Sequence record: MK817115.1
Source of the DNA: Escherichia phage vB_EcoM_phAPEC6
Direction: 5' to 3' (one strand)
Length of the DNA stretch: 64,000 nt
This document shows positions 12,278-64,000 of the stretch, piece after piece. Position numbers and translations under genes: made by a program. The notes under the pieces are model-generated. The model had not been told where the DNA came from, ran no database searches, and saw only the letters and a list, made by a program, of their open reading frames with translations. Each line of letters begins with the position of its first letter. Positions within the stretch are counted from its first letter, which is position 1.

Positions 12278-13510
12278 TTACTTATACCATTGCATTTCTC
12301 TAATATCAATGATAATTTTTGATGCTAACTTGATGTTTGGTTTTTTAGGAAGTACTGATTTCTTATATAGAACATCACGAATGTATTGTACTTTATCATC
12401 GAAATATTCTAATACTTCTTCATACTTCCATTTACCATTACGAATATCCATCAACATTTGTGCATCTGGTCGTTTAACTTGAATAATTCCACTTTGTAAC
12501 GCTTCTTCTGCACTATTCAAAAGTCGGATTGTGTGCATAGCATGTTTACAATCGTATCCGTGTTGTGATTCTAAAATAGCACGTTTGGCATTACGATTTT
12601 CTTTCCATTTATGATAACTTTTCCTATTCTCACTATTTTCCTGATATTCTTTTTCGTTAAATTTGACAATTAGTTCTGGTTTGGTTTTCAACTCTTCAGT
12701 ACTACGTTCTTTTGAAAAATAACGCAATGAACCATCATGGTTAATAGTGCTTTCATTAGGATTCTTAACAATCGCAAAAATGTTTTCTCCGTAATGAATT
12801 AGTTCATAACCATTATTAAAATTCAATAAATTGAAATCACGATCAAGAATTTTTTCAGTAGTGTAGTTATGCACTAATCTTACGAAATGATATTGCTTTA
12901 ATGGATTTTTCGAAACTAACTGCAATGATGTATCACGCATATATTTTTCAAAATCAATCTTTTTAGCATTAAATGGATGTAAGTTGGATGTATCTAAACG
13001 TTCAACAAGATACTGTGGGAATGAATCATACATCCACGCAAGAACCTCATCGACAGGGTGTTCTTCTAAAATCTCATTTAATCGTTTTTCAGCAATACGC
13101 TCTTTATCCATCCAACCGTGATGATTTGTCATACGCTTAATCTGATTATATGCATATCCAGTGTATGAAAATGCAATCTTGGAACTAAGAAGTTTTTGGT
13201 TAAATGAACGAAGATAGTCATAAATTTCAGTACTTTCCACAATGTGTTCAGGTTCAACCCAAAGTGATTCAAGAATATTAGGGTTAGCTTCAGTGTATAA
13301 TTTTAAATACTGATTCAACTCATAGAATTTAGTATCTTCTTCGCTTTTGTCAGCTACCTCGTTGACCTTATAGAAGGGTGTAAGAATAAATTCTTTATTA
13401 GCAAGAAAAATACCACGATAATCAGTATCACTTTCCGGTGTACTGGTTCCGTAGGCTTGTGACCCAGCCAAGTGTTTCACTATTGTTTGTTCAATATATT
13501 GGTTATTCAT
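12278..13510 (-). CDS. Pol-beta-superfamily nucleotidyltransferase-domain protein
   Basis: 410 aa; N-terminal GSQAYGTSTPESDTDYRG fits the minimal NTase motif GS-x10-DxD. Confidence 0.5.
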   Translation of the reverse strand: MNNQYIEQTIVKHLAGSQAYGTSTPESDTDYRGIFLANKEFILTPFYKVNEVADKSEEDTKFYELNQYLKLYTEANPNILESLWVEPEHIVESTEIYDYLRSFNQKLLSSKIAFSYTGYAYNQIKRMTNHHGWMDKERIAEKRLNEILEEHPVDEVLAWMYDSFPQYLVERLDTSNLHPFNAKKIDFEKYMRDTSLQLVSKNPLKQYHFVRLVHNYTTEKILDRDFNLLNFNNGYELIHYGENIFAIVKNPNESTINHDGSLRYFSKERSTEELKTKPELIVKFNEKEYQENSENRKSYHKWKENRNAKRAILESQHGYDCKHAMHTIRLLNSAEEALQSGIIQVKRPDAQMLMDIRNGKWKYEEVLEYFDDKVQYIRDVLYKKSVLPKKPNIKLASKIIIDIREMQWYK

Positions 13511-33403: not shown

Positions 33404-33955
33404 CTATAGATAACTAATTAGTAAGTTTTCTTTTTGAACCAGATACTCCAATTCTTGTCTTGCTGTACCGATGAAGTTCTGTGTCATAAGATTATTATAT
33501 CCCGCTTCTCGATTTTGTCCCTTAGAATAACGAGAAATATGACATAAATTTACACCAGCAACTTCTGCACTTGCATGTTTAGCATTAGTGTATCCATCTC
33601 TAATGTGTTTCAACTCGTCATAGGTTACTTCATAGCTAAAACTGTGACTGTTTGCACCTGGGTAAATTTCAAAAGTTTTGAGTGGTCGAAGATGGGAAAC
33701 AAAAATATTGTAATCCATTTCTTCTTGAACTTCACGACGCAACGCATCTTCTAGTGAGATATCAGTACTTTCTACGGTTCCACCACATCCACCAAGAAGA
33801 CCATCCCATCGTAATTGCAGTAATACTAAATTTACTTCTGGTATATCATTCAACTCATAGTTTTTGTAAGGGTTGCATTTTCTTGCAAAGAAATAACAAA
33901 ATACAAAATTTGCACGTGTGCCATATTCACCAAAGGGAACTTCTTTAACACTCAT
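33404..33955 (-). CDS. Nudix hydrolase
   Basis: 183 aa; Nudix-box-like GGTVESTDISLEDALRREVQEEMDY (REUxEE core present, spacing and final Gly atypical). Confidence 0.55.
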   Translation of the reverse strand: MSVKEVPFGEYGTRANFVFCYFFARKCNPYKNYELNDIPEVNLVLLQLRWDGLLGGCGGTVESTDISLEDALRREVQEEMDYNIFVSHLRPLKTFEIYPGANSHSFSYEVTYDELKHIRDGYTNAKHASAEVAGVNLCHISRYSKGQNREAGYNNLMTQNFIGTARQELEYLVQKENLLISYL

Positions 33956-34710
33956 TTCATACGTTCCTTAATTATAGTCTCTAGATGCGGTATTGCTTTG
34001 GTTGCTGGCTTGATAACTTTTTCATTAAACAAAAAATCATTATCATTTTTACGAATGTTAACATTAACACTATAACATGGTAATGCTGCTGCTAATCTCG
34101 ACCATACCAGTACTGTATCGCTACTACCAATTACAATAACTGTATCATTTTCATTAAGAGATTTCAACACATTATTTCGTTCTTCGTAAATTGGTAAGCG
34201 AATACCATCAACATAACGATGATATTCTCCAATCATTACTACATTTGGTTTAGCAAAAACATCATGTTTTGGTATGTATGGTTCGTATCCGCAGTTAATA
34301 ACATTATAATCATCGGAATTGATACTATAATTTTCAATAACTTCGCACAAGTTTCCATGAAGTTTAAGCTCATGACCACCAATACGAGTATAAAGATCGT
34401 CCATGTTAGAAGTCATATGAAGGAAGCAATCACCATATTGATCTTCTAACGATTTTATAAAATAATGCATTGCATTCGGTTCGCATTGTCCCAATTTTAC
34501 ACGTAATGTATTATAGAAAGAATGAACAACATGATATTTTGTAGTTAAACTAGCAATGTTACATACATCATTAATTTTAAATGTATCCCACAAACCATCA
34601 TCAAATCGAAAAGGTTCCATACCACTTTCAACAGAAAGTCCTGCACCTGATATAATCAGTAATCGCTTTTTACCTTCATTGCTTATAAATTTTTCTGATA
34701 TCATATTCAA
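33952..34710 (-). CDS. Sir2-family NAD-dependent protein
   Basis: 252 aa; sirtuin motifs GAGLSVESGMEPFR, HG, GSS; no obvious Zn ribbon. Confidence 0.55.
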   Translation of the reverse strand: MNMISEKFISNEGKKRLLIISGAGLSVESGMEPFRFDDGLWDTFKINDVCNIASLTTKYHVVHSFYNTLRVKLGQCEPNAMHYFIKSLEDQYGDCFLHMTSNMDDLYTRIGGHELKLHGNLCEVIENYSINSDDYNVINCGYEPYIPKHDVFAKPNVVMIGEYHRYVDGIRLPIYEERNNVLKSLNENDTVIVIGSSDTVLVWSRLAAALPCYSVNVNIRKNDNDFLFNEKVIKPATKAIPHLETIIKERMK

Positions 34711-40944: not shown

Positions 40945-41293
40945 ATTTCAATTTATCATCAACATAATTCAAATCAACTTTAATCATCGGAGCATGGGAA
41001 CGTATAGACAGTGTTTCCATAAAGTACTGATTAAGTTTGTATGTATGGAAAAGATGAATATCTCGTTTCAACACCACCATTACTTCCCCGAACAGATCAC
41101 AGAGTTCAACTTCAGTGTTAGTTGGGTCAAACCCATAACGATTCTTTAATGTACGTGGTTCTTTATTTCGATAATAATGCACAGCTTTATTACTATTCAC
41201 TAACAAGTGATGATATGCATTACTATAAACTGAGCAAATAACTCGGCTTGGATAATTGGTATATTCTGGTAGTTCAAAATAAATTAATGACAC
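40910..41293 (-). CDS. hypothetical protein
   Basis: 127 aa ORF. Confidence 0.4.
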   Translation of the reverse strand: MSLIYFELPEYTNYPSRVICSVYSNAYHHLLVNSNKAVHYYRNKEPRTLKNRYGFDPTNTEVELCDLFGEVMVVLKRDIHLFHTYKLNQYFMETLSIRSHAPMIKVDLNYVDDKLKYDFINSLVYLE

Positions 41294-41305
41294 AATATCC
41301 TCTCA

Positions 41306-42097
41306 TTAAATTTCAAATACAAATTTAGGATTGTAATCAAAATTCTCACAAGCTCCACTGTATGATTCATAGCCTCGTGGATTACAAATGATACGTGTCT
41401 TACCAATGTGGTAGTCAAAACTACTATGAACATGACCATGAATCCAAACATCAGCACCCAAATCTTCAATGTACTGATCCATATCGGAACAGTAACAACC
41501 ATTCAGTGAATCATTTTTATATTTTGGTGAAACACTTTGATAACTTGGTGCGTGATGGGTAACCACGATTACCTTGAAATCATTATCATGCATAAAGCGA
41601 ACTGTGTCAATAGAATTTTTGATAAATTGTTTATCTTTGTGATGCATAAACTCAGTATCATCTGGTGTCAGTTTCTTACGCCAAGGCTCTGATGTTGTTC
41701 CATGACGGATATGTTTGTAATCGTTCATCTTCAGACGAGCATCAAACTTCGTCAAAGAATTACCTTTATCGAAGTCTGTCCACAGAGTACTACCAACAAG
41801 CAGTACTCCATCCAGCCATACAAATTTGTTTTGCAAAAAGATGAAATTAGGAATCTCATCTTGCATATCGGACAGTACTTTATGCGTTTTGTGGATATTG
41901 GAACCATAATATTCATGATTGCCAGGAACCAGTACTACATTCTTAAACTGCTTACATAGTGATTCTATACCAGTACGGTAACGACTGCGTTTAACTTCAT
42001 CGAAGTCCCCAGCAATAATCAGTACTGTATCACTGTAATCACCACTATGGAGGTAATCAGTACCACCGTGTACGTCAGACGTTACAACAAATTTCAT
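41306..42097 (-). CDS. calcineurin-like metallophosphoesterase
   Basis: 263 aa; motifs SDVHGG, GDFDE, GNHEY, VTHHAP, IHGHVH. Confidence 0.7.
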   Translation of the reverse strand: MKFVVTSDVHGGTDYLHSGDYSDTVLIIAGDFDEVKRSRYRTGIESLCKQFKNVVLVPGNHEYYGSNIHKTHKVLSDMQDEIPNFIFLQNKFVWLDGVLLVGSTLWTDFDKGNSLTKFDARLKMNDYKHIRHGTTSEPWRKKLTPDDTEFMHHKDKQFIKNSIDTVRFMHDNDFKVIVVTHHAPSYQSVSPKYKNDSLNGCYCSDMDQYIEDLGADVWIHGHVHSSFDYHIGKTRIICNPRGYESYSGACENFDYNPKFVFEI

Positions 42098-42116
42098 AAT
42101 TACCTCCTATAAGTGT

Positions 42117-43535
42117 TTAGCCAAGTGATTCAATGATACTGTTTGAGAACACCTCAACAGCACTATCACGAATTTCTAAAATACGAGTATAGTCGTCACA
42201 AGTGTTTTTGTCAAATCTAAATTCAATAAACACTGGTAAGAACAGTGATGGCTCACCAGTACGCTTGTCGAATACAATGTCATTACACTCAACTGTAACC
42301 ACTTTACCAATAAGTTCTTGCATTCTTTCCCAAATGGTTTTAAATGTCCATTCAGCATCTTTCTCTTTGATACCAGTACCCACATTAACTTTCAATGAAC
42401 CACAAGCACTTTCCAGTTGTAAAGAACCTAGGCTTCCTTTACGTTTACCTTCACCTTCATTGAAACCAACAATACGCAAGTCTAGTTGCATTTTCAATTT
42501 CATTTTCAACTGCTTCGGAGAAGTGTGAGATTTCCAGATACCATCTTCACATTTCAGTACTGAACCCTCTTCACCTTCGTTCATTAGTTCACTATTGTAC
42601 TCAAATGCTTCTTTGATGTTTAGAACTTTACGGAATCCAACCATACGAACAAAATCACTATTGAGTTCGTTAATTGCATCTACTAAGATCTCGCGACGTT
42701 CTTTACGTTTTACATCCCATACACCTTCACAAAATGCATCATATGGAACAACATCCCATAGAACGAATACAGTACGCATTGCTTCATTCTGACTGATGCT
42801 ATCTTTACCAGCTTTCTGAATTATACCGTTGCCAGTAGTGCGTGGGAGAATGGTTTCCCCATCATTGTCCAGTACTACACCTTCCCCCATAAAGACCACA
42901 CCACTACTAAAACGTTCATCTTTACTTTGGATGATGTGAGCAAGACCTGCCATCTCACCATCACGACAACCCAGGAAGTCGTATAGTTTACCATTACGGG
43001 ATGTAGAAGTTAATGAACCATTAATAACAACGTGGTTCAAGTACTGACCATCCATTTTCACTTCTGATATAGCGTAACCATAATCTTTGAAGTTGATGTT
43101 CTTTGCAGTCTTTTTGTCAATCAAAGAACAACGCATATATGGTTCGTCTTTAATAAAGCCTTTACCAAATACATCATTGCAGTTCTTTTCTTGAATACCA
43201 CAATCAAGGTTTTTAGTAAGCATTTTACGGAGAACTTCCTGATCATCTTCAGATACAGAACCCAGTACTGAAGCAATGAAATCACGCCCCGCATTTCCTG
43301 TCACATCACGCTTGTAAATGCATTCTAGCTTATCAATTGCTTCATCTAACGTCATATGTTGATATACGTCATCAGCGGCAGGGAGCTTCTTATAGCCACT
43401 AACGATAGAAGGGTCTAGAGTATATTTCAGTACTTTTTGTAAAGTTACATTATCTTTATTTTGTTCAAGAATAGCTTTTTTGCCTAGTGTACTGCTAGTA
43501 TTTTTAATGCTTTCAAGAATTGCTAAAATGCTCAT
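42117..43535 (-). CDS. ATP-dependent DNA ligase (T4 gp30-like)
   Basis: 472 aa; adenylation motif EVKMDGQ (KxDG); N-terminus MSILAILESIKNTSSTLGKKAILEQNKDN resembles T4 DNA ligase N-terminus. Confidence 0.85.
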   Translation of the reverse strand: MSILAILESIKNTSSTLGKKAILEQNKDNVTLQKVLKYTLDPSIVSGYKKLPAADDVYQHMTLDEAIDKLECIYKRDVTGNAGRDFIASVLGSVSEDDQEVLRKMLTKNLDCGIQEKNCNDVFGKGFIKDEPYMRCSLIDKKTAKNINFKDYGYAISEVKMDGQYLNHVVINGSLTSTSRNGKLYDFLGCRDGEMAGLAHIIQSKDERFSSGVVFMGEGVVLDNDGETILPRTTGNGIIQKAGKDSISQNEAMRTVFVLWDVVPYDAFCEGVWDVKRKERREILVDAINELNSDFVRMVGFRKVLNIKEAFEYNSELMNEGEEGSVLKCEDGIWKSHTSPKQLKMKLKMQLDLRIVGFNEGEGKRKGSLGSLQLESACGSLKVNVGTGIKEKDAEWTFKTIWERMQELIGKVVTVECNDIVFDKRTGEPSLFLPVFIEFRFDKNTCDDYTRILEIRDSAVEVFSNSIIESLG

Positions 43536-43546
43536 TGTATATTCCT

Positions 43547-44749
43547 TTATAGATAATACTTTCCAATATAAAGTGGATTACTAATTGATAGTTGAACGTG
43601 ACACGGCTTATCTTGGTAGTAACGAGAACTTGATGTTTTGCGTTCATTTGGTGGGAAGAATGGGGAACGATAGCCATTCCATGTACTAAATGATGAGTGT
43701 TCATTAATATCAACATCCATTACCATAATCCCATTATCATCAATTTGAACTGGATATGCACTAAAGCGTTCAAATTTATCATTATAATGGATATTATAAT
43801 CTCCACTACGCCCATAATAACTACGCGTTGTATTATTACTTACACCAAAAAATACGCGATATGTTTGTTCATTATCTTTAGTCATAAATGGTACGTTCTC
43901 GTTGAAACGTCCATTATTCATAAGATCATCAACATTTATTTCTTCATATTTAATTTTTAGGTCTTTTGCTTTAAATGATTTATTGTGTACCAGTACTGGA
44001 ATGTTAGATTCACCTAATGGGTTATGTCTGTTTGTTCTATAGCTTTGCCAAAAATCATTAGCAAGTTTAATTTCTTCATCTGCCGTAGTCTTCTTATTCA
44101 AGAGTGCACGAGGTTCCAGATTGTAATTATCCAAACGTTGATTCAATGCATAAGTTCCACGAGTACTGTTGAAAAGTAAATGATAAACAGAACTTTTGTC
44201 GGGGTATGCAAATTCTTTAGTTTTCTTTATACAAATTGCATGAACTTTACCGCAGTAATAGTAATCTTCTTTGAGATAAGTGAAACCATCACCAACTTTA
44301 AGACCTGCTACAGTTTCTTTTTGTTGTTCTTTTTTATTTTCTTTTTCAACTAACTTAGCAAACGTTTTTGTTTTACCATTAATTAATTCTAAGTTATTGT
44401 TGAAAAACATTGGGTCTACAAAAACACCTTTGATTATATCGTTATTGATAATTAAATCATTCATGTTTTTGGCACTAATCATAAATTCAAATCCTTCTGG
44501 GTGACGGATCGTGAAATATGTTTCTCGTGCATGAGTTGTTAATTTATCAACTACACAAAATCCCGTAGTTGGAACGTTGTCAATATATAACGATGGAAGA
44601 TTGTTCTTCTTTGCCCAGTACTCTGCTCTCTCTTTCTTTGTTTCAAACGCTTTTGTATGTGATTTTGTTGCATCGATAATAAAACCATCAACTTGGTTGT
44701 GGTTTACATAGGAACGTGCAACAAATAACTTCTCTGGAAAATCCATCAA
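43547..44749 (-). CDS. hypothetical protein
   Basis: 400 aa ORF. Confidence 0.5.
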   Translation of the reverse strand: MMDFPEKLFVARSYVNHNQVDGFIIDATKSHTKAFETKKERAEYWAKKNNLPSLYIDNVPTTGFCVVDKLTTHARETYFTIRHPEGFEFMISAKNMNDLIINNDIIKGVFVDPMFFNNNLELINGKTKTFAKLVEKENKKEQQKETVAGLKVGDGFTYLKEDYYYCGKVHAICIKKTKEFAYPDKSSVYHLLFNSTRGTYALNQRLDNYNLEPRALLNKKTTADEEIKLANDFWQSYRTNRHNPLGESNIPVLVHNKSFKAKDLKIKYEEINVDDLMNNGRFNENVPFMTKDNEQTYRVFFGVSNNTTRSYYGRSGDYNIHYNDKFERFSAYPVQIDDNGIMVMDVDINEHSSFSTWNGYRSPFFPPNERKTSSSRYYQDKPCHVQLSISNPLYIGKYYL

Positions 44750-49597: not shown

Positions 49598-49842
49598 TAT
49601 AATAAACCTCTCACATAAAACATTGATGAAAATAGATAATCATCAGTACTTGTGTTTAGATGTTTAGAAAAGCTATATTTTTTATGTTTTTTTTCGTATA
49701 AAGACAATCTATAGAACATTTCTATATTTTCTAAGTATTCTTTTTGTAATAACATCTGTGTTTTTACATTCATTATAATATTCCTTAAAAGAAAAAGGGA
49801 CCAACATATGATCCCTTTTGTATTAGAAATTTCCTTCTGCAA
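49597..49842 (-). CDS. hypothetical protein
   Basis: 81 aa ORF overlapping the pnk 3' region; uncertain. Confidence 0.3.
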   Translation of the reverse strand: MQKEISNTKGIICWSLFLLRNIIMNVKTQMLLQKEYLENIEMFYRLSLYEKKHKKYSFSKHLNTSTDDYLFSSMFYVRGLL

Positions 49843-50755
49843 CTTGAAAAACTTTCAAGCCAAGTAGCTTACGCCACATGAATACGACTTGTGTTCGGTC
49901 ATCATATACCTTTTTAACATCGTAATGATCAACCACATTTTTCATGTACAGGTCGAATTTTACAACATCATCAGGACGTTTATCATCGATATCTCGCATA
50001 AACAATGCATCGTAAGGAACACCCCAATTCTTAAGCCACTGTTCGGTATCCGCACGACACCCTTCAGTACGCCCACTCATGACGATAATCTTGCGTTTAT
50101 GAAAAACTGCTTCAGCGATAATAGACAAAATAACTTCTTCATCAGGTGTATCCTGAAGAACAGTACTTTCATCGTAAGGATTACGACCCCATTTATGAGC
50201 AAGAGTTCCATCGATATCAACGATGATAGCAGCTTCGCGTGAATTACCATAGTAACCAATGTGTAATGCTTTACTATAATAGTACGTATCTGCCATTTTG
50301 TCAATGATATCATCTGGTACTGAACGCTCACGCTGGAGGTTATATTTCTTACAAAGTTTTACGAACTCTTTAATCTTAAAGAATTCATGAACATCTGCAC
50401 CACGGTCTTCATTAGGTACAAAATCATCATAGAAGTTCTTTTCTTTGTAATCATAACCATTATCTGTAGCCCATACTTTCCAGAGATTACGGAAATGTGG
50501 TTTAAGGTTTGTATCGGATACTATGATGTTCCAACCATTCTCTGCTGCTGAATTTGCTGCACTGAACTGTAAATTATCTACGTACTGCTCATTAGCATCG
50601 TTGAATTTGTAAGCATCATGTGACCCAGCCATAGATTCACGAATATCATCACGGTTGATGTTGATAGTCTTGGATTTGGCTTTTTTAATCTCTTGCACTG
50701 CCCATGTAGTTTTACCACACCCAGGCAATCCAACTGTTAGTGTGATAGTTGGCAT
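49823..50755 (-). CDS. pseT: polynucleotide 5'-kinase / 3'-phosphatase (T4 PseT-like)
   Basis: 310 aa; P-loop GLPGCGKTT; HAD phosphatase motif DIDGTL; C-terminus DDRTQVVFMWRKLLGLKVFQVAEGNF matches T4 Pnk C-terminus. Confidence 0.85.
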   Translation of the reverse strand: MPTITLTVGLPGCGKTTWAVQEIKKAKSKTININRDDIRESMAGSHDAYKFNDANEQYVDNLQFSAANSAAENGWNIIVSDTNLKPHFRNLWKVWATDNGYDYKEKNFYDDFVPNEDRGADVHEFFKIKEFVKLCKKYNLQRERSVPDDIIDKMADTYYYSKALHIGYYGNSREAAIIVDIDGTLAHKWGRNPYDESTVLQDTPDEEVILSIIAEAVFHKRKIIVMSGRTEGCRADTEQWLKNWGVPYDALFMRDIDDKRPDDVVKFDLYMKNVVDHYDVKKVYDDRTQVVFMWRKLLGLKVFQVAEGNF

Positions 50756-51578: not shown

Positions 51579-52721
51579 CTAAAAATCCTTTAGTACAATT
51601 TTCATGTATTTTATAAGAGTCTCTTTGTAATCAACTTTCTTATTGTTATACATTGCAAAGGCCAAGCCCTGACGATTCAGTTCATTAGTTAAACACTCCT
51701 GAACCTTCATTGCGAATTCCTTTCGCTCCAAGTGCTTGTGTTCCTTGACGAAGCTTTCTACTTCATCTTGTAATGCATTATAGCACGAAAATACCAATTG
51801 TTCCATTCTTAATATCTTTTGCATAGCATATTCATCAGTACTGAACAATTGTTTTAAATCATCACTTGAACCATTTAATACTGCTTCATATAAATGAGAA
51901 TCAATAATAATACTATCTTTTGTAAGATGTAATGAACTGTACCAGTCAGTCTTTATTTTACACATTGTCCCATTATTTAGGATGCACACAAAACCCTCAA
52001 TATCAAGCATTTTATGAACTTCCTCCACGCTTTCACGGAAGGTATTTCGTACCGGAAAAGTGTGATGAATATCTTTTCCAGTCATATTAGTACTGTACTG
52101 TGCAAGACATGGAAACTTATCACGTAGTGCTTTACCACATAGCAACTCACCACTCACACGATGACGAACGTTCAGTACAAACAGTTGTTCTACCTGATAT
52201 GGTAATACAATTCGGTACTCTGGGCTTGTATACTCCATATTAACTGTGTAACCTAAACGTTCCGCTTCGTCGATGTACTGATACAAATTCTGGTTCTCGT
52301 TAATAAGTCGAGTACTGTTAATCGCATGGTCAGAATACAATGCAGTATGTGATTTACAACGAATCTCACCATCATTATCACGGTAAGTACTGATAATCGA
52401 ACCATCCAACTTAGGCATCACTACCGCAATGTCATCGCATGTGGTGTTAGCAGGGAACATTGTAGCAGGATTCTCGTAAGCATTGAAGAACTTTTTCATT
52501 GTACGTGCTGCACAACGTATCATTTCACCTTCTTCATCAATTTCCCACATAGAGCCACGGGTTTCCAACGCATTTGGTTGCATGAAATCAGTGTATGATG
52601 CTAGACGATAACTGAATACACGATACGTGCCACCAGCAGGACTTTTATGATCCACATAAAAGAATGCATCGTTTGTATTACATAAGTGCATTAAATCTTC
52701 ATATATTTGCAAAAGGGTCAT
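51579..52721 (-). CDS. rnlA: RNA ligase 1 (T4 Rnl1/gp63-like)
   Basis: 380 aa; adenylation motif KLDGS; YRVFSYRLASY, KIKTDWYSSLH and GSSDDLKQLFSTDEY align with T4 Rnl1 segments. Confidence 0.85.
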   Translation of the reverse strand: MTLLQIYEDLMHLCNTNDAFFYVDHKSPAGGTYRVFSYRLASYTDFMQPNALETRGSMWEIDEEGEMIRCAARTMKKFFNAYENPATMFPANTTCDDIAVVMPKLDGSIISTYRDNDGEIRCKSHTALYSDHAINSTRLINENQNLYQYIDEAERLGYTVNMEYTSPEYRIVLPYQVEQLFVLNVRHRVSGELLCGKALRDKFPCLAQYSTNMTGKDIHHTFPVRNTFRESVEEVHKMLDIEGFVCILNNGTMCKIKTDWYSSLHLTKDSIIIDSHLYEAVLNGSSDDLKQLFSTDEYAMQKILRMEQLVFSCYNALQDEVESFVKEHKHLERKEFAMKVQECLTNELNRQGLAFAMYNNKKVDYKETLIKYMKIVLKDF

Positions 52722-56666: not shown

Positions 56667-56862
56667 CATGAACACGCTCACAATTAAGGCAATAAATGCA
56701 CTCAATGTCAGGTCGCCATGATTTATCAAAATCTTTGTGCTGTTCTTCGGTGTATTCTGCATCATCATTAATAGGGAAGAAATCACCAGCACCAGTCGCC
56801 CAGTCTGAATCTAAACGGAAACGAGCTAATTGAGTACTGTTACAATATGGACATTTATTCAA
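56662..56862 (-). CDS. zinc-ribbon protein
   Basis: 66 aa; CPYCNS...CIYCLNC. Confidence 0.4.
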   Translation of the reverse strand: MNKCPYCNSTQLARFRLDSDWATGAGDFFPINDDAEYTEEQHKDFDKSWRPDIECIYCLNCERVHD

Positions 56863-57139
56863 AATTTATTCCTTCTAACTGATATACGTTTAATGAAAAT
56901 GACCCATTATTATTATCGCATCTGAAACACAGTGTTAAAGAACCATTAAAACTAACAACATCAGTACATATACATTTTTCACCATTGGATATGATAGATT
57001 TTCCTATATATAAATCTCTTACTATAGTACGGTAATGTTGCCATAAAAAATAATACACACTTTCATAGTACTCATCTTTTACATATGACAAGTATAAGAA
57101 TTTATAAAATACTTGTATTTCCTTTAAGTTGTTTTTCAT
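56855..57139 (-). CDS. small protein, tandem paralog array
   Basis: 94 aa; VRDLYIGKSI. Confidence 0.4.
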   Translation of the reverse strand: MKNNLKEIQVFYKFLYLSYVKDEYYESVYYFLWQHYRTIVRDLYIGKSIISNGEKCICTDVVSFNGSLTLCFRCDNNNGSFSLNVYQLEGINFE

Positions 57140-57413
57140 TCTCCAACTCCAGTAAATTTACACCAATCCAATCAACATCACTATCAGTACTTAATTCCAA
57201 TCGTAGCTTACCGCTATGACTAACAATATCGCGGAATTTGTATATTTTATTATCACGAACTATACACAAATCATGGTAATATTCATGTAATTCATCCAAA
57301 AACTTTATCCATACCGAACGATAGATTTCACCGTAGAGATATTCTCCAGCATCAACCGTAGCGTATTGGATATACAAAAATTTGTATGTGAATTGTATAT
57401 CATTTAATAACAT
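57102..57413 (-). CDS. small protein, tandem paralog array
   Basis: 103 aa; N-terminus LNDIQFTYKFLY shared with 57424..57735. Confidence 0.45.
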   Translation of the reverse strand: MLLNDIQFTYKFLYIQYATVDAGEYLYGEIYRSVWIKFLDELHEYYHDLCIVRDNKIYKFRDIVSHSGKLRLELSTDSDVDWIGVNLLELENEKQLKGNTSIL

Positions 57414-57423
57414 ATGTAACCTC

Positions 57424-57735
57424 TTATAAATTCACCAACTTCACAACTTTAATCTCGATAAATCCCCTATCGGTTATTTCAAGAAATTCAACATGGATAA
57501 TCCCATTGTATGATTTAACTCCAGAGAACTCGAATATATCATTTCCGTCGATAAAAGTACTGTAATTCTTTTTTATATATTCACCTACTGAATCTAAGTA
57601 CTCAATATATAAATCAATAAATGGTTGTTCTTTGTATGGGTTATGTGAACCTATTTTGTTACTAACAAGGTATACATCATACAAATCATATAGGATCTTA
57701 TAAGTGAATTGTATATCATTTAAATTTAATCCCAA
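57424..57735 (-). CDS. small protein, tandem paralog array
   Basis: 103 aa; N-terminus LNDIQFTYKILY. Confidence 0.45.
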   Translation of the reverse strand: MGLNLNDIQFTYKILYDLYDVYLVSNKIGSHNPYKEQPFIDLYIEYLDSVGEYIKKNYSTFIDGNDIFEFSGVKSYNGIIHVEFLEITDRGFIEIKVVKLVNL

Positions 57736-57992
57736 GGGAATATCTCCAACGGAATACTGGTAAATCCAAAATCAGTGTAGTACTGAACCTCAACTTTACC
57801 ATCACGTCTAATGATTATATCAGAAAATTCTGCATGGTCATCACCAATAATAACAGTACTGAATTTTTTTTTAATCTTACCACGAATTGTATGAATCATT
57901 TCAGTGCATGTGTCTTCTAGACTAGGGCTATCATTGTCGTGTGCTAAATCTCGAATAATCTTGTATGTTAGTAGGAAATCTTTATAATTCAT
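57726..57992 (-). CDS. small protein, tandem paralog array
   Basis: 88 aa; MNYKDFLLTYK. Confidence 0.4.
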   Translation of the reverse strand: MNYKDFLLTYKIIRDLAHDNDSPSLEDTCTEMIHTIRGKIKKKFSTVIIGDDHAEFSDIIIRRDGKVEVQYYTDFGFTSIPLEIFPWD

Positions 57993-58264
57993 ATGTCCAC
58001 CAAATCTATACTATATCTTTCATTAGTATTACTATCTATAAATGATAGTACTAATTTACCACCAAAACTATTAACTTGTTCTATCTTCTGTTTTTTACCA
58101 CGAATGATTATCTCACTATTAACAAAATATTCACGTATCATTATTAAGTGATTAATCCAGATAGTATGAGTGAATGTGTTTTCTCGTATTGTATTGAGAT
58201 ATCTTCCATTGTGATGTAAATCAAACAAAACACTGTATGTATATTGTAGAACTTTATAATTCAT
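57989..58264 (-). CDS. small protein, tandem paralog array
   Basis: 91 aa; MNYKVLQYTY. Confidence 0.4.
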   Translation of the reverse strand: MNYKVLQYTYSVLFDLHHNGRYLNTIRENTFTHTIWINHLIMIREYFVNSEIIIRGKKQKIEQVNSFGGKLVLSFIDSNTNERYSIDLVDI

Positions 58265-58274
58265 ATATCCCCTT

Positions 58275-58305
58275 ACAAAAATAGCCCGAACTTATGTCGG
58301 GCTAT
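58275..58305 (-). terminator. rho-independent terminator
   Basis: Stem ATAGCCCGA/TCGGGCTAT (9 bp), A-run 58275-58280 on plus. Confidence 0.5.
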
Positions 58306-58310
58306 GTACA

Positions 58311-58925
58311 TTATTCATCGTCGTCATCGTCATCTAGATCGATATAGATACTATCATCACCATCATCAAAGTACTCCACAATAACTCCTGGAATATTAAG
58401 AGCAGTAAACATTGCATCATATTTCTCATCAGATGGAATCAAAACAAATTCATCAATGTTTTGAACTTCTGGCATTTTATCTTCGGGGATACCCATATCA
58501 ACAAGTGACTGAATAATCTTTTCTTTGAATTCTAAAAACTTCTCTTCAGATTCAAAATCCATAATAAGCTGTGCAACATATCCTTCATCGTTACCGAATG
58601 AAATTGACATTTGTGCATCAGTACCGACATAGCACCAAACACGTTTACCTGTGTGCTGCTCAATAAAGTTTTGAATCTGTAACACAATGTCATGGCGAGA
58701 ACTGTTAGCAATGTTGTTAAGATTTTCTACACCAGCATTAATTCCAGTACTGTCATTTGTTTCTTCAAATTCACCATAATCACCCAATACATACTGTACA
58801 CCTTCATGATGTAATGCATATGCATAGTCAAGGTCAGCGAGTGAATCGCACTTTCCACGGATCGGACGTAGGGAAAGACCTAAGCGAAGATAACGGAAGT
58901 ATGTATTAGTATTTGTATTTGTCAA
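58311..58925 (-). CDS. hypothetical protein with poly-acidic C-terminus
   Basis: Ends DDGDDSIYIDLDDDDDDE; track ORF (to 58997) overlaps upstream gene, real start uncertain (possibly TTG 58925 or a later ATG). Confidence 0.4.
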   Translation of the reverse strand: MTNTNTNTYFRYLRLGLSLRPIRGKCDSLADLDYAYALHHEGVQYVLGDYGEFEETNDSTGINAGVENLNNIANSSRHDIVLQIQNFIEQHTGKRVWCYVGTDAQMSISFGNDEGYVAQLIMDFESEEKFLEFKEKIIQSLVDMGIPEDKMPEVQNIDEFVLIPSDEKYDAMFTALNIPGVIVEYFDDGDDSIYIDLDDDDDDE

Positions 58926-59205
58926 CGTAATGCTCCTTAACAATATAAAAGTAGTTGCTGTTATTGTCAAAAAAGATAACCATCCCTTTATAGACATTTA
59001 CACCAATTTTGATTTCACATATGTTATTTGATTTACTCGCTTCAGTCAATAACATTTTGTGCTCTTTACTGAAAGTGTGGAACAGTGGTTTGACATGCCA
59101 CATTTCGATACCATCCAGTACTGAAAATTTTTCACTAAATTTAATCATTGATTCTTGTAAAAAATATCCTGTAAGATTTATTTCATCACACATGCAAGTT
59201 TCCAA
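58906..59205 (-). CDS. hypothetical protein
   Basis: 99 aa ORF. Confidence 0.4.
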   Translation of the reverse strand: METCMCDEINLTGYFLQESMIKFSEKFSVLDGIEMWHVKPLFHTFSKEHKMLLTEASKSNNICEIKIGVNVYKGMVIFFDNNSNYFYIVKEHYVDKYKY

Positions 59206-59479
59206 GAAAATTAATCACATCTGCATGTGATAATGTATCATTACCTTCTAGTACATTAATGATAAACGGCACTTGGCGATATAGTTCAGCCAGGAATTGT
59301 ACCTCATCAGATGTGTAAGAATATCCCATAGGAACAACCTGTGCAGTCCAGTTTCCTAGAGTTTTGTTAGCAATAATTGCAACTACAGTATTACCTTTGT
59401 ATTCAACATGGATGGAACGAAATCCTGATTGCTCATTTTGATCCCAAAGTACTGGATTGGTTTTGAACAGTACTGACAT
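59186..59479 (-). CDS. hypothetical protein
   Basis: 97 aa ORF. Confidence 0.4.
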   Translation of the reverse strand: MSVLFKTNPVLWDQNEQSGFRSIHVEYKGNTVVAIIANKTLGNWTAQVVPMGYSYTSDEVQFLAELYRQVPFIINVLEGNDTLSHADVINFLGNLHV

Positions 59480-59481
59480 AA

Positions 59482-60015
59482 TTATTTCCTCATGTATTTT
59501 ATAACGTCTTCAAATAATTGTATTTTTAAGTCCTCGTCATTTCCAGGTAAAAACTCACGAAAACTATCAAAATCTTCATTTTTTGCGAAGTTACGCATTT
59601 GTGTTGAGCTATATTGACTTACATTACGGTCAATACCTGCCTGAATTGCTTTTATACTACAAAAATTATACAACTTACCATTGTACATGTCAAGAGTTTT
59701 TTGAAAAGAATCAATACGGTCAGAACCACAAATGAAAAGAACATCTAAGTACTTTCCATCCAGTTCTCTCATTATATCAAATAGATTGTCTTCTGTGTAG
59801 ATGTTCTCTTGCACTGAAGGATAGAATCCCTCTGTATAATACATTTTTAGTTCAGGTGGGAGTGGGTTTTTTATATTGTCAGTACTGGTGCTTAGATATA
59901 TTTTTAAATCAGCATTGTACTGTTCTTGTAATGTTTTGGCCTTTTCAAAAACTAAACCATGTCCACGATGTACAGGATTAATACGACCAAACGTTAATAC
60001 ACATGTTTCTTTCAT
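59482..60015 (-). CDS. HxGH-type nucleotidyltransferase, likely NMN adenylyltransferase-like
   Basis: 177 aa; FGRINPVHRGH (HxGH) near N-terminus and SSTQMR (ISSTxxR-like) near C-terminus. Confidence 0.5.
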   Translation of the reverse strand: MKETCVLTFGRINPVHRGHGLVFEKAKTLQEQYNADLKIYLSTSTDNIKNPLPPELKMYYTEGFYPSVQENIYTEDNLFDIMRELDGKYLDVLFICGSDRIDSFQKTLDMYNGKLYNFCSIKAIQAGIDRNVSQYSSTQMRNFAKNEDFDSFREFLPGNDEDLKIQLFEDVIKYMRK

Positions 60016-60533
60016 AAATTCTTCATCACCAACCCAAGAGATTTAAGATAATTGATTTTAGCAGTGGTTAAGTACTTATCCAGTACTATCAGACACGAAG
60101 GAAATGGTGCTGAATCTGTTTTCTTATCGGGTTCTTCTGGTATACCAAATCGTAATCTTCCCTTAATAAAACAAATACAATCACATATTTTAGCAGCATA
60201 ATCCTGAAAAGCAATTGTGTCGGTTCTTGAGGGTACAAGAATAACTACAGTTGCCCCGTTATTATATGCATCTACTGCTTTAGATAACCAAGTTTTCAAG
60301 TCACTGTATGGTGGATTCAACCAAACTATATTATTTCCCCAATCCTGTGATAGTGAATCATCTTCTGGAGTGAAAAAATTATCACACAATGCAGTCTCAT
60401 CAACACAAGCAGCATCAAGTGTAAATCCCCATAACTCATCCAAATCTTCAAAGAAATCTTTGGGAGTTGTCCAGTTATCTTTTCCAGTACTGAAATGTAC
60501 TGAATGTTTTTTCGAAGCATCCTTCTTCGACAT
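60012..60533 (-). CDS. phage-type DNA N6-adenine methyltransferase (Dam-like)
   Basis: 173 aa; WGFTLDAAC and NPPY motifs. Confidence 0.5.
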   Translation of the reverse strand: MSKKDASKKHSVHFSTGKDNWTTPKDFFEDLDELWGFTLDAACVDETALCDNFFTPEDDSLSQDWGNNIVWLNPPYSDLKTWLSKAVDAYNNGATVVILVPSRTDTIAFQDYAAKICDCICFIKGRLRFGIPEEPDKKTDSAPFPSCLIVLDKYLTTAKINYLKSLGLVMKNL

Positions 60534-60549
60534 TATATAATTCCTTTTG

Positions 60550-61170
60550 TTAGAGACAGTTGTGTACTATCTTATCAAAAGTACTACTGTCAATGTTATA
60601 TTCATATAAAAATTTAAAATGTGAACCGTAACGCATCATCAGATTAAACTCTTCTTCAGTATTGAACTTGTAATCATGAATAGTCTCAGGGGTACATTTT
60701 AAACCCAAGAACTCTATAATTTCAGATGTTACATCATATCCTGAATTGAAGTATTTAACCCAAACACATTTTCCTTGTGGGTTGTATTTTCTATATTCTC
60801 CTTCTAGTTCTCCTTTAATAATATGAGCCTTAACACTTATTGAATTATTACTATATCTTTCTTCAAAATAATTACCATACTGGGCTTTTGATATTGTTGG
60901 TTTTTGAGTAGGAAGTAATTTAACTGAAGTCACTTCAATTCCATTTTGTAATTCCTTTATATAAGAAATGCATCCTTTTTCTTTAATAACCACATATCCA
61001 GTAAAGATATCTTCGTCTTGTGATTGATTAATGCAATCATCAAAATTCAAAGTTTTATAAGTAACAGTTTTTTCTTTTCTAATAAATGCCATCATTATTC
61101 CTATGGAAACATCAATGAATATACGTGACGTTGATTGCATCAACATCAGTAGAATTATCATGCTACGCAT
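60550..61170 (-). CDS. hypothetical protein
   Basis: 206 aa track ORF; N-terminal 26 codons hydrophobic, true start may be ATG near 61092. Confidence 0.4.
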   Translation of the reverse strand: MRSMIILLMLMQSTSRIFIDVSIGIMMAFIRKEKTVTYKTLNFDDCINQSQDEDIFTGYVVIKEKGCISYIKELQNGIEVTSVKLLPTQKPTISKAQYGNYFEERYSNNSISVKAHIIKGELEGEYRKYNPQGKCVWVKYFNSGYDVTSEIIEFLGLKCTPETIHDYKFNTEEEFNLMMRYGSHFKFLYEYNIDSSTFDKIVHNCL

Positions 61171-61207
61171 GTCTAATTCTACAAGTACTATTTTCTTTTA
61201 ATTAATA

Positions 61208-61740
61208 TTGACGGGGTTTGCTTGAGCATATTTCATCCCCCCGCAGGGGAAAGAACAAAAAAATTTGACGCTGGTGGCCTTCACATAGTTCATATCACGA
61301 ATTCTCTTACGAGACGAAAGCGGGTTGCTCTGTTTCTCTCTATCGCGGTTCTTGTAGCAACGGTCGTCGGTCTTAAACATCCCGACACATAATACAAATA
61401 CCATATGACCAGTACTTGTATTTGATTTCACAAAATTTGGACGCAACTATATTGTATAATTCCGACCGCATATTTCTTATGAAATCTCCCTTAGATAATT
61501 GGTAAGGTGCGATCCTTATATGTCTATCGAGGAACTCTCTTTATCCTATTGGAGTTCTTTATACAGCCGCATTGCCGTGAGTGGTTCAAACTATGCCATC
61601 ATCTAACGGGTTTCATCTGCTGTTCGTACTGAAAGGACTACTCATCTACCCTCTACATTTTCGAGTGGATTAGGCTTTTAATCATTTCCTTATGGGAACC
61701 TTTCAGGATTAAAAAAAGGTGACTAACATATTATGTTGTC
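61208..61740. ncRNA. candidate large structured non-coding element, copy B (paralog of 5527..6096)
   Basis: Same conserved blocks and hairpins as copy A; no conserved ORF; strand unresolved. Confidence 0.35.
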
Positions 61741-61743
61741 ACC
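61711..61743 (-). terminator. rho-independent terminator (long bulged hairpin)
   Basis: GGTGACTAACAT-ATT-ATGTTGTCACC, A-run 61711-61717 on plus. Confidence 0.45.
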
Positions 61744-61747
61744 TTAT

Positions 61748-61758
61748 ATTATATCATT
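61748..61758 (-). promoter_or_regulatory. extended -10 promoter-like motif TGATATAAT (minus strand)
   Basis: Plus ATTATATCATT identical to 6104-6114; directly followed on minus by the hairpin (PeSL-like arrangement). Confidence 0.3.
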
Positions 61759-61773
61759 AACTTATCATTTGTC

Positions 61774-62661
61774 TCAGTTATATTCGGTTTTTTCTGTGAA
61801 ATTTGTTAGTATATCAACACTAAAACTTCGAATAACCTCAATCCTGCTTGGCATGAAACGATGTTTATTTTTAATATACAACTCATCATCTTCAATAAAA
61901 GACGTAAAAATAAATGTCATATCTTCACGTGGAATTTGTAAAATATCACACATTTCATTTGCCGATGCTACTGGTGAATCGTTGTAGTACTGAGAGTATG
62001 CACTAGATTGGCGACCGATTATAATAGAATTTCTGATTAGAAAATTACTACAGTACTGAAAATCTTTGTAGTACTTTTCAATAATGTACGGCATAAGTGC
62101 TTCTTTCACGTCTTCATAACCATTAGTACTATCAATTGCTATACAGTAATCTTCACGTTCTTTTTTCTCATGATGGTAATCATAAACATACTCAAAGAAT
62201 GAATTTTTATTTAATGAATCATTTAAACCAACTGACCCACTATAGTATGATTTTCTATCATTCATTCGATCATCTGGGCATGATGCATACATAGAAGTGT
62301 CATGTGATGATGTACCAATATAAATTTTCTTAGTAATATGATTATACGCTATGTAATCATAATCTTGAACTCCAGTCAGCATTAACTGGAACATTAAATC
62401 ATCAGGAACATCAATTAACGGGTACTCAAACTTCGAATATCTACTGCGGCAGAAGTTCTTTTCAAATGCTCGGTATGCGATAAAATCTTTTAGATTTTTA
62501 CAAGATTCATGCTCATGAGCACTACTGCTACGTACATTGACATTAGTCGATGTGCAATATCCATCCGAATCTTCGGTGAAGTTACCAGCATAATCCTTAT
62601 TGTAGTCAACGATTAGATAAAGTTTCATACATCTCCAGACAAAAAAAGGACGAGATAACAA
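61774..62661 (-). CDS. hypothetical protein
   Basis: 295 aa ORF. Confidence 0.5.
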   Translation of the reverse strand: MLSRPFFVWRCMKLYLIVDYNKDYAGNFTEDSDGYCTSTNVNVRSSSAHEHESCKNLKDFIAYRAFEKNFCRSRYSKFEYPLIDVPDDLMFQLMLTGVQDYDYIAYNHITKKIYIGTSSHDTSMYASCPDDRMNDRKSYYSGSVGLNDSLNKNSFFEYVYDYHHEKKEREDYCIAIDSTNGYEDVKEALMPYIIEKYYKDFQYCSNFLIRNSIIIGRQSSAYSQYYNDSPVASANEMCDILQIPREDMTFIFTSFIEDDELYIKNKHRFMPSRIEVIRSFSVDILTNFTEKTEYN

Positions 62662-62679
62662 ATCCCGTCCTTTGGTTTA

Positions 62680-62985
62680 TTAGTGACTTGCCCAGCAGTA
62701 AACAGGACGTAGATTTTCCATTGGATTTACTTCAGGCTTCAGTACTGTTACACGTACTTCATATGGAGTTCCATCTGCATGATGGAATGTTTCATAATGA
62801 ATACTTTCAATAAATGTTTCGTATTCTTCTTGTGAACGTGAACGTACTGCTGATGAATATTTCTTCTTAGAATCTGCTTTAAGTGTAACACTGACTAGTT
62901 CTGATTCCTCACCTTCTTCAAGTTTGTTGAAATCGAACTCTGGTACACCTTCAAACATATCAAATTTCATTCCATTGTCTTCCAT
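62680..62985 (-). CDS. hypothetical protein
   Basis: 101 aa ORF; terminator-like hairpin downstream at 62650-62678. Confidence 0.45.
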   Translation of the reverse strand: MEDNGMKFDMFEGVPEFDFNKLEEGEESELVSVTLKADSKKKYSSAVRSRSQEEYETFIESIHYETFHHADGTPYEVRVTVLKPEVNPMENLRPVYCWASH

Positions 62986-63034
62986 TTTTAAATTCCTTTT
63001 ATATAATGTTAATTAGATATTTTTAATAAGCAGA

Positions 63035-63421
63035 TTAGATTGTGTCATACTGTAGTGTTCCGTGACGGAATTTTTCAAGTCGTGCTAGAACTTCTTTTCG
63101 TTCAACAATTTCTGGAACATCTTCTTGTAGTTGATCACAAACTTCAACAATGAAGTCCCAATCACTCTCACAACTTTGTCGTACCGCCTCAATTGTTTTC
63201 CAATCAGTACTGATATCACCATCAGCATTTTGATATACAGGCCAAACTTTTCCATAATCAGCAATGGATTTGTCATTTAGAATACGAATGGCATTGAAAA
63301 TCTGACCAGTACTGAAGTGTTTTGTATTCTTCATATCTTCTAAACAGCATAGCTTTGGCTCACCTTTTACTTCAATGAGTAAAACACCACCAATTGCTTT
63401 TAGGACTGAACTTGTATTCAT
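63035..63421 (-). CDS. hypothetical protein
   Basis: 128 aa ORF. Confidence 0.45.
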   Translation of the reverse strand: MNTSSVLKAIGGVLLIEVKGEPKLCCLEDMKNTKHFSTGQIFNAIRILNDKSIADYGKVWPVYQNADGDISTDWKTIEAVRQSCESDWDFIVEVCDQLQEDVPEIVERKEVLARLEKFRHGTLQYDTI

Positions 63422-63492
63422 CTATATCTCCGTTATCAAAAAAAGATGTGAACATTATATCACAAGAATCTAATATGTTCACATTATTTTCA

Positions 63493-63786
63493 TTAGATTT
63501 TAATAATATTGTACCAGTTATCAAAATCCTCAATTGCTAGAATGAACATATTTTCATCATTGAAATCTAAAATATGTTCATTGTATAGGTAACTAATGTA
63601 CTTGTTTTTGCATAGTCTAGCATTCATTAGTAACATTTCTACTGCACGTTCATAAGAACAAGGAACAAGGTATAACTTAGTACCATCTTGGTGAATAATT
63701 TCCTCAGCACCATGTGGTATAAAACGTTCTGCTGTATGTGGAATATACGGCTTAGTTTTAAAAATAATTTTGAATTTAGTATCCAT
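63493..63786 (-). CDS. hypothetical protein
   Basis: 97 aa ORF; GGAGG RBS 8 nt upstream. Confidence 0.45.
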   Translation of the reverse strand: MDTKFKIIFKTKPYIPHTAERFIPHGAEEIIHQDGTKLYLVPCSYERAVEMLLMNARLCKNKYISYLYNEHILDFNDENMFILAIEDFDNWYNIIKI

Positions 63787-63808
63787 ACCAAATCCTCCAG
63801 ATTTATAA

Positions 63809-64000
63809 TGTTTCTTTTATGTTATGTAACATAGTATTAACTATGCACATCTTACCACCTAACTTGTAGTAATATTCTAACTTATTAATAATATTACTTT
63901 TTAATATATCAAATATTTGATATTCATTTGGATCGAAACTAAGTTCGAATTGGAATGTATATAAATTGTTAAAGAGGTGAACTAATGATGCATCTGGTGA
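63809..64000 (-). CDS. hypothetical protein, partial (N-terminus beyond window end)
   Basis: Open frame from window edge to stop at 63809 (...KLEYYYKLGGKMCIVNTMLHNIKETL). Confidence 0.35.

Follow-up and report, generated by a model that had tools for sequence, protein, structure and literature searches.

We analysed a 64,000-nt stretch of the genome of Escherichia phage vB_EcoM_phAPEC6 (MK817115.1; hereafter the window), centring on two adjacent genes that encode a putative nucleotidyltransferase and a small DNA methyltransferase. Over the 2.9 kb around the pair, identity to Escherichia phage 121Q reaches 99.9%. This phage is a RaK2-like jumbo phage (Asteriusvirus, 348 kb), in whose record the methylase gene is gp417 ('DNA methyltransferase') and the transferase gene gp418 ('cytidyltransferase'); we use these names throughout. 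The gp417/gp418 region is present in 35 phage records. gp418 (59482..60015, minus strand) encodes a stand-alone HIGH-motif (HxGH / SSTxxR) nucleotidyltransferase of 177 aa with a predicted adenylyltransferase fold like that of nicotinamide mononucleotide (NMN) adenylyltransferase (NMNAT) and phosphopantetheine adenylyltransferase (PPAT, CoaD); gp417 (60012..60533, minus strand) encodes a 173-aa protein of the small phage Dam family of N6-adenine DNA methyltransferases (PF05869, phrog_111). As an earlier note on this DNA had recorded, both open reading frames (ORFs) lie at these coordinates and carry HRGH, an SxTxxR-type motif (SSTQMR) and NPPY. Both are on the minus strand, and the stop of gp417 and the start of gp418 overlap by 4 nt.

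The pair sits in a longer transcription unit. A gp416-type ORF (60550..61170, minus strand; phrog_16210) comes first in a conserved trio with the methylase and the transferase, and a small gp419-type ORF (59186..59479, minus strand; 97 aa; phrog_14956) directly follows gp418 in the same unit, giving the order gp416, methylase, transferase, gp419 and onward along the minus strand. A terminator-like hairpin with a T-run (58281..58305, minus strand; 9-bp stem with 5 GC pairs, TTTTTG tail) stands directly after the stop of ORF 58311-58997 and probably ends the transcription unit that carries gp417 and gp418. Together with a second terminator-like hairpin at 62645-62673, it places the pair within a multi-gene minus-strand unit. 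The trio is also found in GAP32 (067-069), Munch (089-091) and fENko-Kae01 (086-088), and the record of the gp416 orthologue in fENko-Kae01 bears a note of detection by liquid chromatography-tandem mass spectrometry (LC-MS/MS).

The feature is real and ordinary, and the records of 121Q and related phages already have annotations for both genes. Annotators have named the gp418 gene variously cytidyltransferase, 'cytitidyltransferase', nucleotidyltransferase and 'ribonucleotide reductase A'. Two errors have propagated through the public records (121Q, Ecwhy_1, fEgEco12, S-B64, S-MbCM6), namely the note or product 'NrdB ribonucleotide reductase A' and the misspelling 'cytitidyltransferase'. We reject the GenBank label 'NrdB ribonucleotide reductase A' for gp418 because no search gave a ribonucleotide-reductase match.

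Judged by its profile matches, gp417 is a standard representative of a phage family that is well known. It matches the Pfam Dam model PF05869 with 110.8 bits (E 7.4e-32; gathering threshold 28.1) over profile positions 7-149 of 169, matches phrog_111 with an E-value of 7e-57, and carries NPPY at residues 73-76, which bears out the earlier description of a Dam-like methyltransferase with this motif. Its score against TIGR01712 (phage N-6-adenine methyltransferase) is 91.5 bits, marginally below the equivalog cut-off of 97.05.

Fold class of gp418

The HRGH motif of gp418 occupies residues 16-19 and SSTQMR residues 136-141. H19, S136 and R141 are invariant in 39 stand-alone members of the gp418 family, as are N50, R100, Y111 and N112 (gp418 numbering). 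An SxTxxR-type motif is common to PPAT and FAD synthetase and therefore does not discriminate NMNAT. An AlphaFold (AF2) model of gp418 built on 13 relatives reached a pLDDT of 88.7, and a Foldseek search of the PDB with this model returned bacterial PPATs interleaved with NadD/NMNATs (E about 1e-5, TM 0.6-0.7). At the sequence level, the broader 39-member profile was needed to reach PPAT and NMNAT in the PDB. Its best matches among solved structures were to Helicobacter pylori PPAT over the full length (E 5e-5) and to a TmcAL-like protein (E 6.5e-5, through the C-terminal helix), with NadD at E 3e-4 and NadM/NadR-type NMNATs at E 6e-4 to 1e-2 over the N-terminal half.

On the predicted structure, gp418 groups with the adenylyltransferases (NMNAT/PPAT) and not with CTP-using enzymes. 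Glycerol-3-phosphate/choline cytidylyltransferase (GCT/CCT/ECT) was considered and rejected, since the nearest structural and sequence neighbours of gp418 are not CTP-using. The earlier note had named glycerol-3-phosphate cytidylyltransferase as an example of a class to which the protein might instead belong; the neighbours we find are NMNAT/PPAT. The NMNAT-type label of that note holds for the fold class and for the HRGH and SSTQMR motifs. For NMNAT specificity it finds no support in the profile scores, which fall far under the model cut-offs, and PPAT is equally close. The NCBIfam matches of gp418, to NMNAT and FAD-synthetase models, are weak and sub-threshold, with 19.8 bits against TIGR00482 (cut-off 112.45) and 15.3 bits against NF000840 (PRK00071-type; cut-off 150), and other family members score 12-19 bits against NMNAT models. 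No CoaD model in NCBIfam matched gp418 at E ≤ 1. The class of fold is right, but the name 'NMNAT' is conjecture, the choice between NMNAT and PPAT being ambiguous by sequence and by structure.

A PPAT-like enzyme, making dephospho-CoA or a related pantetheine nucleotide, would agree with the leading Foldseek matches, which are bacterial PPATs (5ts2, E 1.2e-5, TM 0.63-0.70), with the size of gp418 (177 aa) and its single-domain layout, and with the full-length profile match to the H. pylori enzyme, in which KNPL pairs with KNPM and YN lies near the PPAT Y-A-N. However, the support from these E-values is marginal, and the alignment cannot be trusted residue by residue; identity to CoaD/PPAT is 12-18%, the profile alignment puts GSDR of the gp418 family in place of the PPAT RGLR region, the CoaD match in NCBIfam is missing, and CoA-pathway neighbours occur in none of the lineages inspected. 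We know of no phage need for CoA synthesis, and we consider a PPAT-like activity very unlikely.

The explanation that we consider probable is that of a translationally coupled Dam methylase and adenylyltransferase pair in a 121Q-type operon. gp417 and gp418 would be translated as a coupled pair from an operon of several genes on the minus strand of a jumbo phage of the 121Q type (Asteriusvirus). The methylase gp417 would move a methyl group from S-adenosylmethionine to the N6 of adenine in DNA via its NPPY catalytic motif, most likely marking phage DNA and possibly host DNA during infection; its target site and biological role are predicted from family membership. By family precedent, the anti-restriction function put forward in the earlier note is plausible. 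gp418 would be a single-domain, Rossmann-like HIGH-motif nucleotidyltransferase that binds ATP via HRGH and SSTQMR and, as fold and motifs suggest, attaches AMP to the phosphate group of a small acceptor that is already phosphorylated, with pyrophosphate set free. AMP transfer to an acceptor phosphate with release of pyrophosphate is the chemistry of both NMNAT and PPAT.

Several points weigh against this explanation. gp418 itself scores 17.3 bits against Pfam CTP_transf_like (PF01467), under the gathering threshold of 21; its relatives do match the model (34 of 39 stand-alone and 56 of 76 long ones at the E-value limits used), so that membership of the superfamily rests on family and fold. 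Sequence searches of the PDB with gp418 and with a profile of its close relatives gave no match. ATP is suggested as the donor by the nearest structures, and CTP or another nucleoside triphosphate would be compatible with the sequence. To our knowledge, the invariant residues N50, R100, Y111 and N112 are not among the known NMN- or phosphopantetheine-binding signatures. We found no biochemical report on any gp418-family member in the literature, which offers annotation-level statements only. Finally, the window has far fewer GATC sites than a maximal-order Markov estimate predicts (80 against 206 expected, a ratio of 0.39), which leaves few sites to protect if GATC is the target of gp417.

gp418 and NAD+ metabolism

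NARP2 is an NAD+ reconstitution pathway that combines a phage Nampt with a KVP40-type (NadM-Nudix) Nmnat (bioRxiv 10.1101/2024.02.11.579819). gp418 resembles it in being a phage HIGH nucleotidyltransferase that could in principle make NAD+. It differs in that the Nampt and Nmnat cassette of NARP2 is present, as separate genes, in most other RaK2-like phages checked but absent from 121Q-type genomes. In phage CBB, a canonical bifunctional NadM-Nudix NMNAT (CBB_113) and a Nampt (CBB_115) are encoded a few genes from Sir2, and this Sir2 gene is near the canonical NMNAT/Nampt genes, not near the gp418-type gene. The CBB-type cassette gave blastn matches in 40 records, among them GAP32, Serratia BF, Erwinia pEa phages, XbC2, XaC1 and Yersinia phages as well as Munch/7t3, fENko-Kae01, RaK2, K64-1 and EJP2, the last being the only Escherichia phage in which blastn found it. 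None of the 31 records of 121Q/PBECO4-type phages matched, although a highly diverged copy could escape blastn; for 121Q itself, the absence rests on blastn of the CBB NMNAT-Nampt genes and on 170 kb of 121Q annotation. Likewise, the searches run found no Nampt, PnuC or NadR-type partner in 121Q-type genomes, and none stands beside the gp418-type gene in the lineages inspected.

These findings bear on the NAD+ reading of the earlier note, in which an NMNAT in the same genome as Sir2 and Nudix would support phage-driven NAD+ turnover or salvage. A Sir2-family gene (33952-34710, minus strand; PF02146, E 4e-20) and a Nudt16-like Nudix gene (33404-33955, minus strand; PF22327, E 7e-19) are indeed encoded in the window and overlap each other by 4 nt, but they belong to a different transcription unit ~25 kb from gp418, with no evidence of a connection, leaving the proposed link unsupported. 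At the 121Q site that is syntenic to the CBB NMNAT/Nampt genes, protease genes are followed by Sir2 and the Nudix gene; the corresponding neighbourhood in CBB and GAP32 holds the canonical NadM-Nudix NMNAT and Nampt next to Sir2. A role of gp418 as the salvage NMNAT of the phage is likewise unsupported. At least in GAP32 and Munch, a gp418-type gene and the NMNAT-Nampt pair coexist in the same genome; the gp418 family is therefore not the canonical salvage NMNAT of those phages. The 121Q-type phages lack the cassette, and a putative gp418 NMNAT therefore has no phage Nampt partner in them. As far as gene content can tell, gp418 does not correspond to the canonical NMNAT that serves NAD salvage in RaK2-like phages.

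gp418 could nevertheless be a true NMN adenylyltransferase that rebuilds or boosts NAD+ in infection, either with Sir2/Nudix or against NAD+-depleting host defences, as a minimal NARP2-like system. With the NMN/NaMN adenylyltransferases (NadM of the archaeal/bifunctional type, NadD, NadR, human NMNAT1-3) it shares an N-terminal HxGH and a C-terminal SxTxxR-type motif. In our reading of the alignments, its N-terminal GRxNPxHxGH and NPL resemble GRFQPxHxGH and NPF of NadM, and its GSD resembles the G-x-D motif of NadD. The weak NCBIfam matches point the same way, those of gp418 being to NMNAT and FAD synthetase and those of six other members mostly to NMNAT, with none to CoaD. The P-loop kinase fused to some gp418 relatives recalls NadR, and homologues have been labelled 'NMNAT-like' in papers on cyanophages (PMC9602691, PMC10665884). 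Moreover, the canonical NMNAT has been lost from the 121Q clade, in which gp418 could be the sole one. Set against this, the scores are 5-10 fold under every NMNAT cut-off, PPAT is equally close, and gp418 has neither a Nudix nor a kinase domain, and its family has invariant KNPL, GSDR and YNG that set it apart from these enzymes. The pyridine-stacking aromatic is not conserved, the position being F, I, L or M in our reading of the alignment. The coexistence with canonical NMNAT and Nampt in GAP32 and Munch, the presence of the cassette in most other RaK2-like phages checked, the missing Nampt, PnuC or NadR-type partner, and the distance to Sir2 and Nudix, when Sir2 of CBB is near the canonical genes instead, all argue in the same direction. 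We regard a true NMN adenylyltransferase with such a role as rather unlikely.

The gp418 family and its acceptor

A word-indexed homologue search reached only relatives of at least 59% identity, and an exhaustive HMMER search was used instead. With a profile of close relatives, it returned 3,412 representatives of clusters at E ≤ 1e-3, of which 2,247 remain at E ≤ 1e-10. The best 150 relatives include 36 stand-alone proteins that resemble gp418 (160-230 aa) and 92 proteins longer than 400 aa; in nearly all long members the transferase domain is N-terminal and is followed by long, Lys/Arg-rich and mostly uncharacterised C-terminal parts. Pfam identifies DUF5824 in 15 of the 76 long members scanned and a zeta-toxin/AAA_33 P-loop kinase in five. 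By a local iterative search, an ADK/zeta-like P-loop kinase is fused to the transferase in eight of the best 150 relatives, and this kinase is assignable no further than adenylate-kinase/zeta-toxin/AAA_33-like. The 39 stand-alone members have in common the motifs FGRxNPxxxGH, S.S.D..KNPL....K, GSDR, YNG..Y.F, SAG.R and S(A/S)(T/S)..R.

Residues 2-176 of gp418 match phrog_3041 'cytidyltransferase' (E 8.5e-58) at profile positions 49-232 of 678, and gp418 thus belongs to the family of the 'cytitidyltransferase' of T4-like cyanophages (PHROG 3041 and 395). By tblastn, the family is present in 566 phage records, of which 460 are of cyanophages (overwhelmingly T4-like); the others include RaK2-like phages, PA5oct, where the gene lies among structural genes, and Stenotrophomonas phage DLP_6, where the protein has 722 aa. 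Cyanophage S-B64 has two tandem paralogues. The cyanophage and marine members differ from gp418 in that they are longer (250-1,200 aa), some are found in virions, and they adjoin a DUF6267 gene and often an adenylate-kinase-like gene, whereas gp418 is a bare catalytic domain that follows a Dam methylase. Papers on cyanophages call the homologues 'cytidyltransferase' or 'NMNAT-like' without enzymology (PMC9602691, PMC10665884), and our literature searches for 'cytitidyltransferase', DUF6267 and DUF5824 found nothing.

Homologues have been detected in proteomes of virions from cyanophages S-SCSM1, S-CBWM1 and S-CREM2 (PMC9602691, PMC10665884), which raises the possibility that gp418-type proteins are packaged effectors that enter the cell along with the DNA and condition the host as infection begins. 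The long Lys/Arg-rich C-terminal parts that nearly all of the 92 longest of the best 150 relatives carry behind an N-terminal domain would suit such a role. gp418 has no such part, and the records of 121Q, PA5oct and fENko-Kae01 flag neighbouring proteins, but not the short RaK2-like form, as virion proteins. The short form is thus probably an intracellular enzyme in RaK2-like phages, and we think a virion-borne effector very unlikely.

The genomic context of the transferase was compared in 80 loci from IMG/VR, most of which are fragments of T4-like marine phages; these were gathered with a closer sub-alignment and are biased to such phages. In 62 of the 80, a gene for a DUF6267 protein (408 aa, PF19782, E 6e-134) stands one or two genes upstream of the transferase, an arrangement also seen in cyanophage S-B64 (2860-3789 of the locus) and in DLP_6 (1116-2351 of the locus); tblastn found no DUF6267 in Escherichia phages. 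An adenylate-kinase-like gene is separate in 15 of the 80 loci and fused in 13. A gp417-like methylase occurs in none of them, and the coupling to a methylase is therefore lineage-specific synteny.

This bears on the notion that methylase and transferase act jointly on DNA, for instance in a two-step hypermodification of adenine, which would explain the gene overlap. The 4-nt overlap and the order methylase-then-transferase, kept in four RaK2-like genera or lineages (121Q, GAP32, Munch, fENko-Kae01), are compatible with it, but an order shared within one phage group is accounted for by common descent, and the methylase is missing beside the transferase not only in the marine loci but also in PA5oct, DLP_6 and S-B64. 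The only HIGH nucleotidyltransferases known to us to act on nucleic acid are aminoacyl-tRNA synthetases and TmcAL (on tRNA), none of them on DNA. Joint action on DNA is, in our judgement, barely credible; the pairing is a lineage-specific gene order and not a demonstrated functional couple.

The DUF6267 partner offers one further lead. Its alignment has invariant K58-x-D60-G61 and E373-G374-x-V376 and a nearly invariant K387, which on our inspection are reminiscent of motifs I, IV and V of ligases and capping enzymes. A sequence search of the PDB found no match, and the AF2 model was poor (pLDDT 59.7, pTM 0.39), with meaningless Foldseek matches (best E 0.11). As the model is too poor to search with, the 'ligase-like' reading stands on the inspected invariant residues only.

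For gp418 as the adenylyltransferase of the coupled pair, NMN or NaMN, with NAD+ or NaAD as product, would be the likeliest single acceptor, one that we name tentatively. 4'-Phosphopantetheine has little to commend it. The chance that the acceptor is one yet undescribed for this phage-associated clade we judge to be evenly balanced. The recurrent fusion to, or adjacency of, a kinase suggests a two-step 'phosphorylate then adenylylate' pathway (or the reverse), like NadR, CoA synthase and FAD synthetase. We further speculate that gp418 is the minimal form of a very large adenylyltransferase clade, seen in this analysis only in phage sequences, whose acceptor is neither NMN nor phosphopantetheine and whose coupling to DUF6267 and the kinase would point to an undescribed nucleotide-handling pathway; as a whole this reading is doubtful.

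A structured-RNA candidate, other features of the window and significance

The ORFs resembling gp415 and gp416 are separated by a gap of ~600 nt (61171-61773) that contains an unannotated structured-RNA candidate of ~480 nt (61196-61677, minus strand). The gap aligns across 121Q, GAP32 and Munch with 71% mean identity and long invariant blocks, while the flanking proteins are only 35-66% identical. By blastn, the element is found in 61 records, all of RaK2-like phages and with four to five copies per genome, the hosts being Escherichia, Salmonella, Erwinia, Yersinia, Xanthomonas, Serratia, Cronobacter, Pectobacterium and Klebsiella. RNAalifold folds a 14-sequence alignment into 66 pairs in 14 helices, 31 of the pairs having compensatory double changes. 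The share of paired cells is 96.4% and drops to 35-45% if the partners are shifted by 1-3 columns. These slid controls have covariation scores of no more than 0.104, compared with 0.442 for the actual pairing, and 500 shuffles all stay below what was observed.

A covariance model of the 3' core finds both copies in the window, that in the gap (core match 61264-61379, 106 bits) and a second at ~5528-6057 on the minus strand (core match 5605-5759, 92 bits), as well as two further copies in 121Q. In IMG/VR it matches only contigs of about 350-380 kb or shorter fragments. It gave no match to ncRNA001/002 of PA5oct, which are defined by RNA-seq. Rfam 15 gave no match for window positions 58000-64000 at E ≤ 1, nor for the second copy and nine orthologous loci at E ≤ 5, and we found no description of a large non-coding RNA in RaK2-like phages in the literature. 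From its conservation and covariation, the element looks like an undescribed, multi-copy structured RNA class of ~480 nt in RaK2-like jumbo phages. In the neighbourhood of gp417 and gp418, this element is probably more of a surprise than the gene pair.

A TGnTATAAT box at 61712-61756 (minus strand) is invariant in 121Q, GAP32 and Munch. It directly precedes, and in part overlaps, the hairpin that terminates the upstream gene, although the sequence of this hairpin differs among the three phages. The site may be an overlapping terminator and promoter that feeds the RNA element and the gp416 operon.

Just downstream of the operon terminator, five consecutive small ORFs (88-103 aa; 56855-58264, minus strand) have alike N-terminal sequences (..LNDIQFTYKFLY.. 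/ ..YKDFLLTYKII..) and look like a tandem array of paralogues, annotated as hypothetical in 121Q (gp422-426). The window further encodes an RNA-repair set, consisting of an RlaP-type pol-beta nucleotidyltransferase, a T4-like Pnkp and a T4 Rnl1-like RNA ligase, and a DNA ligase that is ATP-dependent, not NAD+-dependent (in this order 12278-13510, 49823-50755, 51579-52721 and 42117-43535, all on the minus strand). The window is not collinear base for base with NC_025447.1: a constant offset taken from the gene pair is ~285 nt off at the DNA ligase (~41000-44000), and there are therefore indels between the two. GTAC is over-represented in the window (ratio 1.42), the genome having 33% G+C.

Among phage enzyme families of untested function, the 'cytidyltransferase' that occurs in RaK2-like jumbo phages and in most of the searched records of T4-like cyanophages is one of the larger. 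The gp418 family is matched by more than 3,400 clusters (50% identity), its homologues have repeatedly turned up in virion proteomes, and current work on phage NAD+ pathways (NARP1, NARP2, NARP3) does not cover it. gp418 is its smallest natural form and is a candidate for a fourth phage route to NAD+ or, alternatively, for the source of a wholly different adenylylated product. Should the acceptor prove to be neither NMN nor phosphopantetheine, the coupling to DUF6267 and the kinase might reflect, for example, recycling of a cofactor or of AMP for a ligase-like enzyme, or a new adenylylated metabolite made early in infection, and RaK2-like phages would have kept the transferase step alone.

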